Origin: Candidatus Latescibacterota bacterium
GTDB lineage: Bacteria; Latescibacterota; UBA2968; UBA8231
NCBI GenBank assembly: GCA_965208105.1
Contig: OZ242318.1
Location: forward strand, 4,160,001-4,224,000
Direction: 5' to 3'
DNA length: 64,000 nt
A model generated the notes under the pieces. That model was not told the DNA's origin and searched no databases. It saw only the letters and a program-made list of their open reading frames with translations. Both the position numbers and the translations under genes were made by a program. This document shows positions 52,172 through 59,923 of this stretch, one piece after another. Position 1 is the stretch's first letter, and the number at the start of each line of letters is the position of its first letter.

Positions 52172-54202
52172 TCACCACCAGTGCACGCGATGTCCCGCCG
52201 TGGGAAACCAGATCATGTCCACGACCGTGGACAGAACCACACCCACCACGTAGCCGATTCCCAATCCATAAAAAAAGGGCTTTCCGGCCAGATACGCCTT
52301 CACTCCGCCATAGCGCAGAAGGACCACCTTGATGGCGAAGGCGATGAAGAAATTGATCCAGTACCACCAGGTCGCGTGGGTGTATTGAAAGATCAACCCG
52401 ATGGGATGGATGGGAAACCAGTGAAAGCGGGCGCGCAAAAAGGAGATTCCGGCGGCCTCCAGGAACCCTCCCCACCACAGCGACCACTTGTACAGGTTGG
52501 GCGTGGTGGGGTTGGTGATCAGGTAGGTGATACCGTCGTAAAAAACGGCTGTCCTGCCGCCCACGTAAAGGGTCCCCCCCTCGTCGTAGGCCAGATCGAG
52601 CATGGCCCAGGCCGCCGCCGCGAATCCCACGGGGAATGCAACGAACACAACCGCCGTCACCCACCGGGGTTGGCGCGGCAGGGAAAAAATGCGCAGATGA
52701 TGCGCCATTGCCGGCCACGCCGGGATGGTGAACGGCCCGAAGAAGGCGAAGCTGGTGAGCACTTTGAAGGGGACCAGGCGTTGCGGCGGTATGTAGATCG
52801 AGCCGATTAGCTCCAGAAAGAAGGACTCCCCCTTGAGGTAGGGACGATTGGGATAGATGTAGGCGCAGCCGCTGGCCGCAACCAGCTTGACCGCGACGAA
52901 GTAGGCCAGCACCATCAGCCCGAACATGCCAAGGGCCAGCCACAGGCTCACCCCGAGATGCAGGGCCCAGCCGATCACGTAGGCGGCCGATCCCAACATG
53001 CCGGCCACGGCCCAGCGGTAGCGCCGTACATCCTGCGGGTCTCCCTCTCCGTGCCGCACCTGCTCCCACACCTGGCGGAGATGACGCCGCGCCACCCACA
53101 CCGACCAGAGGAATACGAAGACCATTGCTCCGTGGCTCTCGGTATTGAGGATCATCTGGGGCTCGGAAAAGCGGTTGTTGGCGTTTACCCCGGTGAAGCC
53201 CAGGCTGGGGGTGCCGAAGCGCCGCATCAGAACCATCTTGAACTCGGCCAGCCAGTGGAAGAGCACCATGCTGCCGAGGATGTCCACCGGGCACAGGTAG
53301 ATCACCATCAGCATCAGCGGCATTACGCGGATGAATCCCGACACCAGTCCATTGCCGAATTCGTAATGGTAGTAAGTCCAGAACAGGTCGAAGGAGGGAA
53401 GGCCGGGGGTGAAATAGGTGGTGACGTTATAGAGCAGCGGAAGGAAAACGGCCCCGAATCCTGCCCAGAACAGGCGCGAAAAGAAGATGTCCGGCATGCG
53501 CCTCCGGCCGTCGAAGCCCTGGGTCATGTCCATGGGCATCTGGGCCAGGGGGAAGGTGAGCTTTTCCGCTACCATCCACTGGCGCTGAAACACGATCAGC
53601 AGGCAGAAGCCGAAGGCCACCACCGCCATGGACACCCCCAGCCAATTGAAAATCTGAAGCACCCAGCCGTCCCAGGGCAGGCCCATACCCTCGGGCAGAC
53701 CATACCAGAAGGCGTCGGTGATCCGTCTCGTAGCAGGGGGAAAGGCGTGCCAGGGCACGAAGTTGAAAAATGTTTCCGCCCACTGGTTCTCGGGAGTGGC
53801 AAAGTGGGTCGGGCCCGTCAGGGTGGCGACCCAGGAGTTCATCCAGGAGGGAATGGTCGCCACTACCCATGTCATCGAGAAAAGGGTCAGCAGTTCTCCC
53901 CGGCTCAATGCCAGGCGGGGCCATACCGACTTGATGCCCACATTGAGCAATAGCCACATGGCGAAGGGCATGAACGCGGCGATGGGGTACTGCGACTGCA
54001 CGTAGGTGCCCGATCCCTGGCGCTGGGCGATCTGGATGATGTAGTAGAACATCGCCGCGATGGTCAGCGCTCCCAGCACCACGGCGCGCAGGGTGATCAA
54101 CGGCGAATCTTCACCATCGCGCTCAATTTGGTCGCAATCAGAGAATCGACCTGGAGTAGATCCCTGAGGATTTTCAGTTGCTCTATGGTGGGGAAGGGGC
54201 AT
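52172..54202 (-). CDS. Polytopic membrane protein (DUF6785/DUF6784-like, putative peptide transporter)
   Basis: ITLRAV.LG, W...EKL.FP.AQ.P, W.ARRHL, W.PIHPIG, K...LRYGG...Y....PFF.GL..G; start uncertain. Confidence 0.7.
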   Translation of the reverse strand: MPLPHHRATENPQGSTPGRFSDCDQIERDGEDSPLITLRAVVLGALTIAAMFYYIIQIAQRQGSGTYVQSQYPIAAFMPFAMWLLLNVGIKSVWPRLALSRGELLTLFSMTWVVATIPSWMNSWVATLTGPTHFATPENQWAETFFNFVPWHAFPPATRRITDAFWYGLPEGMGLPWDGWVLQIFNWLGVSMAVVAFGFCLLIVFQRQWMVAEKLTFPLAQMPMDMTQGFDGRRRMPDIFFSRLFWAGFGAVFLPLLYNVTTYFTPGLPSFDLFWTYYHYEFGNGLVSGFIRVMPLMLMVIYLCPVDILGSMVLFHWLAEFKMVLMRRFGTPSLGFTGVNANNRFSEPQMILNTESHGAMVFVFLWSVWVARRHLRQVWEQVRHGEGDPQDVRRYRWAVAGMLGSAAYVIGWALHLGVSLWLALGMFGLMVLAYFVAVKLVAASGCAYIYPNRPYLKGESFFLELIGSIYIPPQRLVPFKVLTSFAFFGPFTIPAWPAMAHHLRIFSLPRQPRWVTAVVFVAFPVGFAAAAWAMLDLAYDEGGTLYVGGRTAVFYDGITYLITNPTTPNLYKWSLWWGGFLEAAGISFLRARFHWFPIHPIGLIFQYTHATWWYWINFFIAFAIKVVLLRYGGVKAYLAGKPFFYGLGIGYVVGVVLSTVVDMIWFPTAGHRVHWW

Positions 54203-54281
54203 TGAGAGAGGGGGTCTATTCTAGGAGCAGTGCCGAGCCGAGGCGCATTGGCCTCTGTGTCGATAGGGTGGGCTGAACGCA

Positions 54282-54317
54282 AGTAGAGGGATGGATTTTG
54301 CAATCCATCCCTCTACT
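54282..54317 (-). terminator. 16-bp perfect stem with GCAA loop downstream of duplicated gene copy A
   Basis: AGTAGAGGGATGGATT-ttgc-AATCCATCCCTCTACT; weak U-tail. Confidence 0.7.
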
Positions 54318-54345
54318 CATGAAGCTGCGAAGCTGGTGATCGAGC

Positions 54346-56298
54346 TTACTTCAGCAGGGTCATCGAATGCGTGGCGGAAAAATCGCCGGCCTGCATGCGA
54401 TAGAAGTAGACTCCGCTCGACACCTGCGAGCCGGCCTGGTCAAGCGCGTTCCAGGTTGTCCGGTAGGTCCCCGCGCTCAACTCCTCGCCCACCAGGCTGG
54501 CCACGGTTTGGCCCACCGCGTTGAACACGTCGATTTCCACGAAGCCCTCGGCGGGCACGTTGAACTCGATGGTGGTCTCGGGATTGAAGGGGTTGGGATA
54601 GGCCGCACCCAGCGAGTAGCTGTCAGGTGTGCCAGCGCTCTCCACCTCTTCCACCGCGGTCATGTCCAGCCTGCCGCTGACCAGATCGTAGGGAATGTGG
54701 AAGAACATGGCCGCCCCGAACTTCTGCCCCTCGATGCGCTCGAAGGTGTGCCGGGTGATGTCGTAGCTGGAATCCCAGTACATGCCGTCCCACGGCCCGC
54801 GCTGACCGGCGTTGGGGCCGTCCCAAGTCGAGCTGCTGCCGATGGTGGAGCGGTCGTGGTCGATGATGTTGATGAAGGTCGACAGCGAGATGACGAGCGG
54901 GCCGACGATCGCCGGATCGGCGAAGATGTTGAAGATCCCCGCGCCGTCGCGGCCGGTGGTCCCGTAGTTGACGCCCAGGGCGTTGTGCCGCGGGCTGAAG
55001 TAGGCGGCTTTGCCGCTGAGATCGGCGTTGTAGCGGATGGGATAGGACGCGTCCACCGTCATGCCCGTCTCCGCCGCCAGCTCGTAGGTCACCCGGTCGC
55101 CCACCAGGTCGCCGTTGCGGTTGACCCAGATGGTGTTGCCGTCGTGGTCGATCTTGATGAGGTTGGGCGAGAGCCAGCCGGACAGGTAGATGCCATCCTC
55201 GTGGACGGACAGGTTGCCCGGTCCGCTGGCGCTGGCCACCTCGTTGCCCTCGTCGTCGACGCTGAAGTTGGTGAACCACTCGGCTATGTCGAGGGACTTG
55301 GTCACCTCGCCGGAGCCCTTGTCCCAGAACTCCACCGAACTGGCCGGCACGTCGGCGCGGCTCCAGTTGGCCGCCACCAGGTTGTTATTCCAGACCTCCA
55401 TCTGCATGATGCCGATGCCGGGGGCGCCGATGGGCGCCAGGCCGTTTTCGGCCCAATCCGTGTCGGCCTCGAAGGTCTGGGCGGCGCGGTTGATGGTCAT
55501 GCGATAACAGCCGGCGCCCTCGTCCGAGCGATGGGTGGTGTAGTAGATGTCCTGCTTATCAGGGTCCGGGTCGCCGCGCATGCCGCCCAGGGTCCGCGCC
55601 CCTTCGAAGTCGGTGACGCTGTTGGCGTCCCAGCGATCCCAAGCGTTGGGGTTGGCGATGAAGTCGGTGCCCAGGACAGAACGGCCGATGTCGCCGGAGC
55701 GGTGGCCGCCCCAGTCGGGCGCGTCGCGGTCGTACTCACCCATCCACACCTCGTTGGTGCGCAGATCGATCCAGGGATCGGCGAAGCCCGTGATCGGGGC
55801 GATGCCCGCCACGGACAAGTCCTCGAGAATGTTCAGACCGATGAGATCGAACTCGAAGGGTCCGGCGCCGGCGGCGTTGCCTTCCCAGTCGTTGCCGTCC
55901 CAGGTGATCACGTTGTTGCCGGCCTCGAAGTCCTGGCCTGCGGTGGAGGCGACGAACAGGGCGGGGCCGGGCTGCAGGCGCAGCCAAGCCTCGAAGGGTC
56001 CTCGCGCACCGGTCGTTGCCTTGGCTCCGTCGCTGGCGTCGTAGACGGCCAGCCACACGCGGGCGCGCTGGTTGAGACTGAAGGGTATGTCCACCGAACC
56101 CCCGCTGTAGCCAACGTCACCGGTACTCATGATGAGTGTATTCACCGCACCGGACTTGACGATGGGAGCCCAGAGGGAGGGATCCATGTTGTCAAAGGAC
56201 GGCTGGGCGGGAAGACCGGTCAACTCTTCGGCCTCCACGGAACCCAGGGCCAAGACAGCAACGGCTACTCCAAAAAGAGTTGCTCGTACTATTCGCAT
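54346..56298 (-). CDS. Secreted 650-aa protein, copy A: N-terminal FlgD-Ig-like, central beta-propeller-like, C-terminal FlgD/T9SS-type sorting domain
   Basis: Signal peptide; AG.N.I.WDG.D..G; C-terminal YPNPFNPETTI...SSGVYFYRM.AG...MTLLK; GAGGAG RBS. Confidence 0.8.
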   Translation of the reverse strand: MRIVRATLFGVAVAVLALGSVEAEELTGLPAQPSFDNMDPSLWAPIVKSGAVNTLIMSTGDVGYSGGSVDIPFSLNQRARVWLAVYDASDGAKATTGARGPFEAWLRLQPGPALFVASTAGQDFEAGNNVITWDGNDWEGNAAGAGPFEFDLIGLNILEDLSVAGIAPITGFADPWIDLRTNEVWMGEYDRDAPDWGGHRSGDIGRSVLGTDFIANPNAWDRWDANSVTDFEGARTLGGMRGDPDPDKQDIYYTTHRSDEGAGCYRMTINRAAQTFEADTDWAENGLAPIGAPGIGIMQMEVWNNNLVAANWSRADVPASSVEFWDKGSGEVTKSLDIAEWFTNFSVDDEGNEVASASGPGNLSVHEDGIYLSGWLSPNLIKIDHDGNTIWVNRNGDLVGDRVTYELAAETGMTVDASYPIRYNADLSGKAAYFSPRHNALGVNYGTTGRDGAGIFNIFADPAIVGPLVISLSTFINIIDHDRSTIGSSSTWDGPNAGQRGPWDGMYWDSSYDITRHTFERIEGQKFGAAMFFHIPYDLVSGRLDMTAVEEVESAGTPDSYSLGAAYPNPFNPETTIEFNVPAEGFVEIDVFNAVGQTVASLVGEELSAGTYRTTWNALDQAGSQVSSGVYFYRMQAGDFSATHSMTLLK

Positions 56299-56330
56299 TT
56301 GGTTCTTCTCCTCTTTGGTTAGAATGATTA

Positions 56331-56540
56331 TGAGATGCAAGGAATACATCTCACGACGAAAGAAATGTAAGAATTAATAGAACATTTTCTACAACGGTCA
56401 GGTGATACTGGCTTTCACCTCCTTTCAAACCAAGAGACCTGAGGTAGAATTAAACTCAAGTTATTATTAAAGTTACTATATGGTGCAATATGCAATATTG
56501 CCATTATTGCCATTATTGCCATTATTATATATAACTCCAA
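56331..56540 (-). promoter_or_regulatory. Structured 5' leader with an upstream reading frame ending WFERR* (copy A)
   Basis: Hairpins at 56398-56442 and 56331-56353; frame 56540-56415 is stop-free. Confidence 0.55.
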
Positions 56541-56541
56541 T

Positions 56542-56570
56542 TAAATACAAAAATTCCATTTGAATGTCAA
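56542..56570 (-). promoter_or_regulatory. Sigma70-like promoter, copy A
   Basis: TTGACA (56570-56565)-17 nt-TATTTA; conserved in copy B. Confidence 0.55.
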
Positions 56571-56649
56571 GTTTTAAATCCATTTAGCGATAGAGGGTTA
56601 CAGCCTGTTGGAAAAATGAATTGGCCTGCGGAATGGTGGCCTGAACGCA

Positions 56650-56685
56650 AGTAGAGGGATGGATTTTGCAATCCATCCCTCTACT
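56650..56685 (-). terminator. Identical 16-bp stem downstream of copy B
   Basis: Same sequence as 54282-54317. Confidence 0.7.
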
Positions 56686-56713
56686 CATGAAGCTGCGAAG
56701 CTGGTGATCGAGC

Positions 56714-58666
56714 TTACTTCAGCAGGGTCATCGAATGCGTGGCCGAGAAATCGCCGGCCTGCATGCGATAGAAGTAGACCCCGCTCGACACCTGCGAGCC
56801 GGCCTGGTCAAGCGCGTTCCAGGTTGTCCGGTAGGACCCGGCGCTCAACTCCTCGCCCACCAGGCTGGCCACGGTCTGGCCCACCGCGTTGAACACGTCG
56901 ATTTCCACGAAGCCCTCGGCGGGCACGTTGAACTCGATGGTGGTTTCGGGATTGAAGGGGTTGGGATAGGCCGCACCCAGCGAGTAGCTGTCAGGTGTGC
57001 CGGCGCTCTCCACCTCTTCCACCGCGGTCATGTCCAGCCTGCCGCTGGCCAGATCGTAGGGAATGTGGAGGAACATGCCGGCGCCGAACTTCTGGCCCTC
57101 GATGCGCTCGAAGGTGTGCCGGGTGATGTCGTAGCCGGTTCCCCAGTACATGCCGTCCCACGGCCCGCGCTGACCAGGGTTGGGGCCGTTCCAGGTGGTG
57201 CTGCTGCCGATGGAGGAACGGTCGCGGTCGATGATGTTGATGAAGGTCGACGACGAAATGGGGAGCGGGCCGACGATCGCCGGGTCGGCGAAGATGTTGA
57301 AGATCCCCGCGCCGTCGCGGCCAGTGGCCCCGTAGTTGACGCCCAGGGCGTTGTGCCGCGGGCTGAAGTAGGAGACCTTGCCGCTGAGGTCGGCGTTGTA
57401 GCGGATGGGATAGGACGCGTCCACCGTCATGCCCGTCTCCGCCGCCAGCTCGTAGGTCACCCGGTCGCCCACCAGGTCGCCGTTGCGGTTGACCCAGATG
57501 GTGTTGCCGTCGTGGTCGATCTTGATGAGGTTGGGCGAGAGCCAGCCGGACAGGTAGATGCCATCCTCGTGGACGGACAGGTTGCCCGGTCCGCTGGCGC
57601 TGGCCACCTCGTTGCCCTCGTCGTCGATGCTGAAGTTGGTGAACCACTCGGCTATGTCGAGGGACTTGGTCACCTCGCCGGAGCCCTTGTCCCAGAACTC
57701 CACCGAGCTGGCCGGCACGTCGGCGCGGCTCCAGTTGGCCGCCACCAGGTTGTTATTCCAGACCTCCATCTGCATGATGCCGATGCCGGGGGCGCCGATG
57801 GGCGCCAGGCCGTTTTCGGCCCAATCCGTGTCGGCCTCGAAGGTCTTGGCGGCGTGGTTGACGGTCATGCGGTAGCAGCCGGCGCCCTCGTCCGAGCGGT
57901 GGGTGGTGTAGAAGATCTCCAGCTTGTCGGGGTCGGGATCGCCGCGTATGCCGCCCAGGGTCCGCGCCCCTTCGAAGTCGGTGACGCTGTTGGCGTCGTA
58001 GCGCTCCCAGGCGTTGGGGTTGGCGATGAAGTCGGTGCCCAGGATAGCCCGGGCGATATCGCCGGAGCGGTGGCCGCCCCAGTCGGGCGCGTCGCGGTCG
58101 TACTCACCCATCCACACCTCGTTGGTGCGCAGGTCGATCCAGGGATCGGCAAAGCCCGTGATCGTGGCGATGCCCGCCACGGTGGCGTCCTCGAGAATGT
58201 TAATGGCCACGAGATCGAACTCGAAGGGGCCGGCGCCGGCGGCGTTGCCTTCCCAGTCGTTGCCATCCCAGGTGATCACGTTGTTGCCGGCCTCGAAGTC
58301 CTCACCGGCGTTGGAAGCGACGAACAGGGCGGGTCCGGGCTGCAGGCGCAGCCAAGCCTCGAAGGGGCCGCGTGCACCGGTAAATCCCTTGGCTGCGTCG
58401 CTGGCGTCGTAGACGGCCAGCCACACGCGGGCGCGCTGGTTGAGACTGAAGGGAATGTCCACCGAACCCCCGCTGTAAGCCACGTCACCGGTACTCATGA
58501 CGAGGGGATTCACCGCACCGGACTTGACGATGGGCGCCCAAATAGAAGGGTCTTCCCTGTCAAAGGCCGGCTGGGCGGGCAGACCGGTCAACTCCTCGGC
58601 CCCCACGGCACCCAGTGCCAAAACGGCCATCGCTACTCCGAATAGCGTTGTGCGTACCATTCGCAT
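56714..58666 (-). CDS. Secreted 650-aa protein, copy B
   Basis: Colinear with copy A, no indels, about 53 amino-acid differences by manual count. Confidence 0.8.
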   Translation of the reverse strand: MRMVRTTLFGVAMAVLALGAVGAEELTGLPAQPAFDREDPSIWAPIVKSGAVNPLVMSTGDVAYSGGSVDIPFSLNQRARVWLAVYDASDAAKGFTGARGPFEAWLRLQPGPALFVASNAGEDFEAGNNVITWDGNDWEGNAAGAGPFEFDLVAINILEDATVAGIATITGFADPWIDLRTNEVWMGEYDRDAPDWGGHRSGDIARAILGTDFIANPNAWERYDANSVTDFEGARTLGGIRGDPDPDKLEIFYTTHRSDEGAGCYRMTVNHAAKTFEADTDWAENGLAPIGAPGIGIMQMEVWNNNLVAANWSRADVPASSVEFWDKGSGEVTKSLDIAEWFTNFSIDDEGNEVASASGPGNLSVHEDGIYLSGWLSPNLIKIDHDGNTIWVNRNGDLVGDRVTYELAAETGMTVDASYPIRYNADLSGKVSYFSPRHNALGVNYGATGRDGAGIFNIFADPAIVGPLPISSSTFINIIDRDRSSIGSSTTWNGPNPGQRGPWDGMYWGTGYDITRHTFERIEGQKFGAGMFLHIPYDLASGRLDMTAVEEVESAGTPDSYSLGAAYPNPFNPETTIEFNVPAEGFVEIDVFNAVGQTVASLVGEELSAGSYRTTWNALDQAGSQVSSGVYFYRMQAGDFSATHSMTLLK

Positions 58667-58700
58667 CTGATTCTTCTCCTCTGTTGGTAGGAATGATTAC

Positions 58701-58827
58701 GAGATGCAAGGAATACATCTCACGACGAAAGAACAAACAATTTTTTAAAACCGTCAGGTGATGCTGGCTTTTACCTCCTTTCAAACCAAGAGACCTGAAG
58801 TAAAGTAAAGCCATAATATGACTCCAA
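58701..58827 (-). promoter_or_regulatory. Structured 5' leader with an upstream reading frame ending WFERR* (copy B)
   Basis: Hairpins at 58754-58798 and 58701-58721; frame 58827-58771. Confidence 0.55.
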
Positions 58828-58856
58828 ATTAAAAAAAAATTCTATTTGTATGTCAA
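58828..58856 (-). promoter_or_regulatory. Sigma70-like promoter, copy B
   Basis: TTGACA at 58856-58851 followed by a T-tract and TTAAT. Confidence 0.5.
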
Positions 58857-59269
58857 GTTTTAAATCCGTTCAGGGCAACCGGTTGGAAGAATAAATTGCC
58901 CTGCGGAATTGTGGCCTGCACGCGGGGAATGGATGAAGTGCAGCTACAGGTCGAGTGTTGCCTGCTTTCACTTCCTTCCCGACCAGGTAACCTGGGGCCA
59001 TCCATGAACTGTCAGGTCCAGGATTGTCGTGAGGCGAATACAGCTCCGCCTGTCAATAATTTTATTTTCATCCAATTCAAGTTAATTCAATGCAGCGTAA
59101 ACAATTAACAACATTGACGCGGGGGGATTTGGATGGGGTTCTTCCCTCCGGTTGATAGGTGCCATAGCGGGCAATTTGATTTTACCCGCTTTTTCCACTA
59201 GGATTATGGGCCGGAACGGCAATCACCGGCCAGCAAGGCCTTCCTCCATCCGAAAAAGACAAGGACGAA

Positions 59270-59923
59270 ATGACGGAATCGACCCAGACCGTCCAAAGCC
59301 CGGTTGTCGGCAGCCTTATCGTTTATACCAACGCTCTCCTCCTGGGAACAGGGCTGATGTCCCTGGAAATGCTTGGCAGCCGCTACCTGGGCCCCTACTT
59401 CGGATCTTCGATTCACATCTGGGCGGCGTTGATTTCAACGGTTCTGGCGGCATTGTCCGCGGGCTACTTCCTGGGCGGCTACATCGCCGATAAATTTCCC
59501 TCTCTCCTGGTGTTGGGGGGGGTCGTCCTCCTGGCATCGGGCTACATCGCCCTGATTCCCTTTTTTCTGGACGAGGCCTGTATTCTGGTCATTCGAATGA
59601 TTTCAGGCCCCGCACTTGGCAGTCTCGCCGCCAGCTTCGCCATCTTGTTCCTCCCCCTGATGGGCATTGCCATATTCACCCCTTTCGGGGTCCGCCTCCT
59701 CGTCCGCGGCCACGGGAGCGACCGTCCCGGCACCGCCACCGGGATCATGTACGGGATTTCCACTCTGGGCAATATTTTTGGGATTCTGTTCACTACGTTC
59801 TACCTCATGCCAAGGTATGGTTCCAGGGTGATAACCTACCAGATTTCTCTGGTAATCCTCATATCTGCACTGTCGTTCTGGATTTACCATTGGGCAAACA
59901 GGGGGAAACCCCATAGCTCCTGA
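59270..59923 (+). CDS. Membrane (MFS-like) half of the fused MFS/spermidine synthase family
   Basis: M.LE.LGSR.L.PYFGS....W..LI..VL.ALS.GY..GG..AD; G..Y.ISTLG.I.G...T.F.L.P..G. Confidence 0.8.
   Translation: MTESTQTVQSPVVGSLIVYTNALLLGTGLMSLEMLGSRYLGPYFGSSIHIWAALISTVLAALSAGYFLGGYIADKFPSLLVLGGVVLLASGYIALIPFFLDEACILVIRMISGPALGSLAASFAILFLPLMGIAIFTPFGVRLLVRGHGSDRPGTATGIMYGISTLGNIFGILFTTFYLMPRYGSRVITYQISLVILISALSFWIYHWANRGKPHSS

Follow-up and report, generated by a model that had tools for sequence, protein, structure and literature searches.

The 5′ untranslated region (UTR) of the Bacillus thuringiensis cry3A message contains a stretch resembling a Shine-Dalgarno (SD) element, STAB-SD, which lies near the 5′ end at −129 and pairs with 16S rRNA without initiating translation; the 30S subunit that it holds blocks RNase J1, and the message is stabilised (Agaisse and Lereclus 1996; Mathy et al. 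2007, as reviewed in section 3.2 of PMC4113751). According to PMC9943677, ribosomes bound in the 5′ UTR of Escherichia coli messages impede scanning by RNase E, to a degree that scales with the strength of the SD and is greater when the ribosomes are frozen in place. On the Bacillus subtilis hbs mRNA, ribosomes that initiate at a strong SD stand in the way of RNase J1, and it is RNase Y that opens the 5′ UTR (PMC5737220). Here we analyze a 64,000-nucleotide stretch of a Candidatus Latescibacterota genome (GCA_965208105.1, contig OZ242318.1, positions 4,160,001 to 4,224,000; hereafter the window) and describe an orphan extended SD, a start-less complement of the 16S rRNA tail found in the leaders of two tandem genes, A and B, and of many of their paralogs.

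The single 16S rRNA gene of the home genome (G000) ends in GGATCACCTCCTTTCT, and the same tail is present in the three other genomes used below (G001, G008, and G021). The duplex predicted between this tail and the motif amounts to −21.5 kcal/mol in the leader of gene A (copy A), compared with −9.6 kcal/mol for the gene's own ribosome binding site (RBS), and to −17.0 kcal/mol in the leader of gene B (copy B), compared with −9.5 kcal/mol. No ATG, GTG, or TTG lies 3 to 13 nt past the GGAGG of either window copy, which confirms the claim of a first-pass annotation of this DNA that the leader holds a strong SD without a suitably spaced start codon; as set out below, the conservation of this feature reaches far beyond the two copies. 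The block CAGGTCTCTTGGTTTGAAAGGAGGT occurs exactly twice in the window (56417–56441 and 58773–58797, minus strand), as does the block GAGATGTATTCCTTGCATCTC (56332–56352 and 58701–58721, minus strand), with 0 occurrences expected by chance in both cases. The annotation had proposed a comparison with Rfam, and a scan of 54000–59500 returned no known family for either leader up to an E-value of 10. We found no published description of such an element in Latescibacter or Latescibacteria in the literature on SD sequences and type IX secretion. The agreement of the two leaders is weak evidence in itself, because genes A and B are recent tandem duplicates: their coding sequences are 93.4% identical, with stretches at 99 to 100%, and their proteins 92%, and the leaders align with 78% column identity and gaps of 61 and 13 columns, lower than the coding sequences. 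The annotation had itself warned that frame conservation between the copies carries a one-in-three chance probability, an apt caution. BLAST searches with the leader found no third copy in the home genome; the wider pattern emerged from the upstream regions of diverged paralogs. The case beyond chance therefore rests on these paralogs and on the other genomes, which back the SD motif only.

The home genome holds 13 family members that are paralogs over their full length or nearly so, and the three other genomes, which bring the total to two genera, add many more. We scanned 63 upstream regions (13 from the home genome and 50 from the other three) for 16S complements of at least 9 nt situated more than 20 nt before the assigned start codon. 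Of the 36 regions found, two were dropped, having GAGGTGATC without the GGAG core and probably lying inside upstream coding sequence, which left 34 of 63 leaders with the motif (10 of 13 in G000, 10 of 20 in G001, 7 of 13 in G008, and 7 of 17 in G021). Start codons were assigned heuristically, probably wrongly for L062, L068, and L081, where motifs may be missed. The motif begins a median of 104.5 nt ahead of the start codon (72–134 nt in 31 of 34 instances), and at the sequence level none of the 34 is followed by a conserved start codon or open reading frame (ORF) at a usable distance. When the instances are lined up by their GGAG, the conserved stretch coincides exactly with the 12 positions of GAAAGGAGGTGA (68–100% match), and the match falls to 26% at the next position on either side; the profile is partly circular, since instances were chosen for matching over at least 9 nt and its core is inflated accordingly. 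Pairing of the motif with the 16S tail is predicted at a median of −19.9 kcal/mol compared with −9.5 kcal/mol for the genes' own RBSs and is the stronger of the two in 34 of 34 cases; only 0.1% of the RBSs of 2959 crude gene calls reach −19.9 kcal/mol. The motif persists in paralogs that share only 40 to 50% protein identity and in both genera. The comparison of homologous leaders that the first-pass annotation had called for thus upholds the SD motif but neither of its companions, an upstream reading frame ending in E-R-R-stop and the loop of a second hairpin.

Counting only orphan complements of 10 nt or more that lie in non-coding DNA, 20 to 250 nt upstream of a gene, 8 of the 13 family genes of the home genome have one compared with 3 of 2946 others (Fisher p = 1.5e-18), and the non-family sites have no downstream gene in common. 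Eight ortholog pairs of G000 and G001, which belong to the same genus, are identical at 89 of 96 motif positions (93%) compared with 729 of 1367 positions (53%) in the rest of the leader; for some pairs the motif is the sole alignable block between promoter and RBS. The motif is absent from both members of four further pairs and degenerate in one member of another, presence or absence being concordant in 12 of 13 pairs. This sequence evidence gives good support to the start-less 16S complement as a real, family-specific, and conserved feature.

Among metagenome relatives, four of the seven with upstream sequence have an 8- to 9-nt complement 82 to 163 nt upstream. L015, a locus from another genus, shows an 8-nt match at an uncertain distance, and L085, from a more distant metagenome-assembled genome, one of 10 nt that lies 253 nt upstream. 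Simply counting GAAAGGAGGTG across 41 related genomes (1–18 per genome, with 0–7 for the reversed control) gave no discrimination. A profile search of contigs with the family protein alignment was rejected, as it keyed on the C-terminal sorting domain and returned mostly unrelated cargo of the type IX secretion system (T9SS).

Some individual leaders have features of their own. A subgroup of four (L043, L044, L046, and L075) carries a shorter motif, AGAAAGGAG, after CUCCGG, so that its GGAG can pair with the upstream CUCC, the opposite of display in a loop. At L051 (G021), the end of the orphan SD overlaps with an ATG from which a frame of 29 codons runs up to the main gene, its TGA sharing letters with that gene's ATG (ATGA); this frame is not kept in the closest relatives, L053 and L052. 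Directly upstream of the paralog, L045 (G021) and L047 (G001) hold fragments resembling the 5′ part of 16S rRNA, with a junction and gene start that are almost identical in these two different genera; for L045, Rfam gave a truncated small-subunit rRNA match below threshold (32.7 bits, model positions 1–221). These fragments could reflect assembly chimerism, recent transfer, or a real insertion.

We examined how the motif is presented by folding. The annotation had placed the SD in the loop of a nested hairpin (hairpin 1, Table 1) and, in the isolated fold, this shape stands, but it brings no extra stability: the segments fold at −13.0 and −13.5 kcal/mol, no better than dinucleotide shuffles (z scores of −0.25 and −0.74). 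When the motif is held unpaired, its flanks outperform their shuffled versions in pairing (mean z −0.81, p 0.001, n = 36) and at least four enclosing pairs surround it in 27 of 36 instances, the window copies being the clearest cases (z −3.9 for copy A and −4.2 for copy B). A subgroup of seven members shares a consensus 6-bp helix that encloses the motif and has one pair changed on both sides. Display of the motif in a hairpin loop is, on these results, weakly supported. Hairpin 2, described by the annotation as a conserved hairpin with an anti-SD loop, is indeed strong (z −6.18, 0 of 200 shuffles folding as well), but its loop is private to the two window copies: of the same-genus orthologs, L034 has UUUA in place of UUCCU, and L035 no longer has the hairpin. 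Across the four closest leaders the three helices of the first-pass annotation are 88.8% paired compared with 34 to 44% in slid controls, and no compensatory changes were found among these four close relatives. The element is a short sequence motif with variable stems, both hairpins together being common to only four close relatives. Whole leaders give fold z scores of −1.5 and −1.2, which are not significant. When the copy-A leader (56296–56445, minus strand) is folded whole, its minimum-energy structure does not form hairpin 1, whose CUCUUGGUU instead takes as partner AACCAAAGAG, immediately ahead of the real RBS; in that of copy B, hairpin 1 is retained and the RBS region is paired with an upstream U-rich tract.

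Table 1. Coordinates of the orphan SD motifs, hairpins, predicted promoters, and genes of the A/B locus, in window positions.
Feature	Positions	Strand	Remarks
Orphan extended SD, copy A	56415..56426	(-)	GAAAGGAGGTGA; 12-nt perfect complement of the 16S tail; begins 128 nt before the gene A start codon
Orphan extended SD, copy B	58773..58782	(-)	GAAAGGAGGT; 10-nt perfect complement, then AA; begins 116 nt before the gene B start codon
Hairpin 1, copy A	56398..56442	(-)	Outer stem UCAGGU/ACCUGA, inner stem UGGUUU/AAGCCA, 12-nt loop formed by the orphan SD; minimum-energy fold of the isolated segment
Hairpin 1, copy B	58754..58798	(-)	Same architecture; minimum-energy fold of the isolated segment
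Hairpin 2, copy A	56330..56354	(-)	10-bp stem, loop UUCCU; −12.9 kcal/mol, z −6.18
Hairpin 2, copy B	58701..58721	(-)	Identical core; repeat of the conserved block
Real RBS of gene A	56308..56313	(-)	GAGGAG, 9 nt ahead of the ATG at 56298
Predicted sigma-70-type promoter, gene A	56542..56570	(-)	TTGACA, 17 nt, TATTTA; predicted by sequence
Predicted promoter, gene B	58828..58856	(-)	TTGACA, 17 nt, TTTAAT; predicted by sequence and alignment with copy A
Gene A	54346..56298	(-)	650-aa secreted protein: N-terminal signal-like segment, beta-rich body, T9SS C-terminal sorting domain
Gene B	56714..58666	(-)	650-aa paralog of gene A, in tandem with it
Likely terminator 3′ of gene B	56651..56684	(-)	Perfect GC-rich hairpin, by sequence

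Both encoded proteins begin with a signal-like segment and match FlgD_ig and Por_Secre_tail over residues 567–641, which marks a T9SS sorting domain at the C-terminus, and residues 1–560 match no Pfam family. Forty-five relatives in a large protein collection are all called 'hypothetical protein' or are nameless. A structure model of the gene B protein is all-beta and beta-propeller-like with an Ig-like part, at moderate confidence (pLDDT 68, pTM 0.61); its top PDB match is PorZ with a TM near 0.2, so the resemblance to a beta-propeller is loose. Each gene has its own AT-rich leader (32–35% G+C, compared with 61.6% for the genome) and TTGACA box. The GC-rich hairpin 3′ of gene B likely separates the transcription units of genes B and A, as judged from its sequence; the same hairpin lies 3′ of gene A (about 54283–54318), where it also came up as a spurious hairpin match in the Rfam scan. 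Directly 3′ of gene A, 52172–54202 (minus strand) encodes a 676-aa membrane protein with DUF6785 and DUF6784, and the upstream flanks of the paralogs L050 (G008) and, apparently, L040 (G021) begin in sequence resembling the end of a gene of this type; the DUF6785/DUF6784 family and the T9SS-cargo paralog family may be repeatedly linked. A further paralog (G000:C1:4227260-4229110) lies about 3 kb past the right end of the window and has a GC-rich upstream region without an orphan SD.

The TTGACA box of gene A is kept in copy B and in the G001 ortholog; the gene A promoter is not among the hits of a simple promoter scanner. The upstream frames of the first-pass annotation, which open with TTG and end in AGG-AGG-stop, are real in that both translate as written when TTG is taken as the start. 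Their TTGs (copy A 56538–56540, beginning 2 nt after its hexamer; copy B 58825–58827, abutting its hexamer) lie 0 to 1 nt past the predicted −10 hexamers, as the annotation had itself cautioned, and by this prediction they fall upstream of the likely transcription start. The codons read as E-R-R-stop are a side effect of the motif, the TGA being part of the 16S complement. Relative to copy B, the copy-A leader contains an AT-rich insertion (56449–56520, minus strand) between the predicted promoter and hairpin 1, which holds three tandem AATAATGGC units and is the source of all in-frame ATGs of the copy-A upstream frame.

Contigs assembled from RNA libraries cover the leaders, which are thus present in those libraries. 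A contig from run X17 (55904–56455) spans the whole SD hairpin of copy A and extends 14 nt beyond it. Contigs from runs X15 and X16, both from one study, run from the coding sequence of gene B and end at 58775, inside the copy-B motif; contig ends at the motif are weak hints. The stretches without RNA-contig cover (56498–56654 and 58853–59000) are no evidence of transcript ends.

We propose that the orphan SD serves as a docking site for 30S subunits and works like STAB-SD, a reading by analogy that we rate as an even call. A stretch of 10 to 12 nt perfectly complementary to the 3′ tail that 16S rRNA leaves free, usually bracketed by a stem and so presented in a loop, about 100 nt upstream of a much weaker real RBS, would allow a 30S subunit to dock. 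With no start codon at hand, the docked subunit would be unable to move off by translation, and once parked it would form a persistent obstacle that shields the leader and the real RBS from decay dependent on the 5′ end. The nuclease held off would be a homolog of RNase E/G, or RNase Y, rather than a 5′–3′ exonuclease; the home genome encodes one RNase E/G homolog and two RNase Y homologs. We infer 30S binding, and any effect on stability or translation, from the sequence.

Several results count against this proposal or temper the evidence for it. The RNase J model TIGR00649, which gave matches in 13 of 14 control genomes, has none in the home genome (93.9% complete); therefore the RNase J1 block of STAB-SD cannot apply as described, and the blocked enzyme would be RNase E/G or RNase Y. 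The distance from the predicted transcription start to the motif ranges from about 30 to about 155 nt, so on this prediction the motif is not at the primary 5′ end. As the X17 contig passes through the motif, the contigs have no common end, and all of them are assemblies of related strains from which true 5′ ends, strand, and level are not readable and which may include DNA. The motif is missing from 29 of the 63 family leaders, and at 8 loci with single family homologs in other genera, orphan complements of 9 nt or more number zero. Folding without constraints leaves the motif unpaired at 0.50, compared with 0.48 when the flanks are shuffled, and the structures are no more stable. The control set for the enrichment consists of 2959 crude gene calls covering 69% of the home genome. 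The p-values make the evidence look stronger than it is, since the instances share descent.

The same complementarity and conservation would be expected of ribosome standby or translational tuning, in which the orphan SD feeds a weak RBS with 30S subunits or competes with it as a decoy, acting on translation and not on decay. Such a role would suit real RBSs that are much weaker than the motif (median −9.5 kcal/mol) and a spacing to the start codon that is fairly constrained (72–134 nt in 31 of 34). However, about 100 nt is far for a hand-over, the sequence around the real RBSs is A-rich with no evident structure (whole-leader z −1.5 and −1.2), and family genes without an orphan SD have RBSs of equal strength (median −9.7 kcal/mol, n = 29), which leads us to consider this explanation unlikely. 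The motif might alternatively have no function and be a relic carried along as the family expanded through duplication. The window copies are recent duplicates with 93.4% identical coding sequence and 29 of 63 leaders lack the motif, as a relic would allow, but it reaches 93% identity where the rest of the leader stands at 53%, is kept in two genera by paralogs of only 40 to 50% protein identity, and is present or absent in concert in 12 of 13 ortholog pairs; we hold a relic to be very improbable.

A GGA in a hairpin loop could instead mark the site of an RNA-binding protein, CsrA-like or another regulator of this gene family, and the first-pass annotation had pointed to the CsrA-type signature. 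The motif contains GGA and is often bracketed by a stem, and its family-specific distribution would suit a dedicated regulator. The CsrA model PF02599, which detected its controls in E. coli, B. subtilis, and T. maritima, has no match in the home genome (93.9% complete), so the CsrA reading of the signature is weakened. CsrA-type recognition is not known to need GGTGA after GGA, and the conservation seen here spans the whole 16S complement, including that GGTGA; a protein site of this kind appears improbable. Equally hard to credit as the relic is the switch put forward by the annotation, in which a ribosome pausing or terminating on a short upstream ORF ending in AGG-AGG-stop sets which of two partners, decoy SD or real RBS, the UUCCU loop of hairpin 2 takes. 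Both frames exist, hairpin 2 is strong (z −6.18), the window copies have 4 to 5 anti-SD-like pentamers between orphan SD and real RBS compared with 1.0 to 1.5 expected, and the pairing of CUCUUGGUU with AACCAAAGAG in the whole copy-A leader makes alternative folds conceivable. The wider set of leaders speaks differently. Among 29 AGGAGG instances, 20 have the in-frame stop (16 TGA, 3 TAA, and 1 TAG) and 9 do not (7 TGG and 2 TGT), so the E-R-R-stop frame is not kept; among the 20 stop-bearing instances, 8 lack any ATG, GTG, or TTG in frame, and in the window the TTG starts sit at predicted −10 boxes. The proposed choice of partners for the UUCCU loop fares no better, as the loop is lost in same-genus orthologs (UUUA in L034, no hairpin in L035), anti-SD-like pentamers are not enriched (11 of 34 leaders, with 11.7 expected), and compensatory changes are lacking. 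A copy-specific structural switch in the two window leaders, backed by nothing beyond these two sequences, is conceivable.

STAB-SD-type stabilisers have so far been studied in Bacillus and explained by RNase J1. We offer as a tentative and rather doubtful generalization that a start-less super-SD about 100 nt upstream is a cross-phylum means of parking 30S subunits on heavily used messages, possibly without RNase J, and that here it was multiplied together with a growing family of surface proteins secreted by the T9SS, giving them a shared post-transcriptional handle tied to the pool of free 30S subunits. If this were true, ribosome parking on leaders would be more general than currently described and would have to work against nucleases other than RNase J. 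At 12 nt plus a short stem, the element is compact and testable. It also carries a warning for annotation, since the strongest SD near a gene need not mark its start codon.

Each of the described systems shares part of this arrangement. In CsrA target leaders, GGA occurs in hairpin loops and a further site lies at the RBS. The leaders here likewise have a GGA-containing loop upstream of an RBS that also contains GGA; they differ in that no CsrA gene was found and in that conservation tracks the 16S complement and not a short GGA core. The hbs message offers a strong SD as a stability determinant and a role for RNase Y, two homologs of which are present here; the protecting SD of hbs is its own RBS, whereas here it would be a separate start-less site about 100 nt upstream. 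The E. coli obstacle sites resemble the proposed arrangement in that a strong leader SD holds a ribosome that shields downstream RNA, protection there increasing with 16S complementarity and with how long binding persists, and an RNase E/G homolog is present here; those cases are short translated ORFs, whereas the motif here has no start codon. A related effect is attributed to Lodato et al. 2012, who reportedly found that the RBS of a mini-ORF protects a type III secretion system (T3SS) mRNA. Compared with cry3A, whose stabilisation is established and which belongs to Firmicutes, the element described here occurs in Latescibacterota, in a genome where the search for RNase J gave no gene, tends to have a stem around it, is common to many paralogs of one secreted-protein family, and is a candidate stabiliser. 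The two nevertheless have in common an SD-like sequence in the 5′ UTR, complementarity to the 3′ end of 16S rRNA, a lack of initiation (here as read from the sequence), and a position about 100 to 130 nt upstream of the start codon, and the core of the cry3A element, GAAAGGAGG, is the same as that of the Latescibacterota motif.

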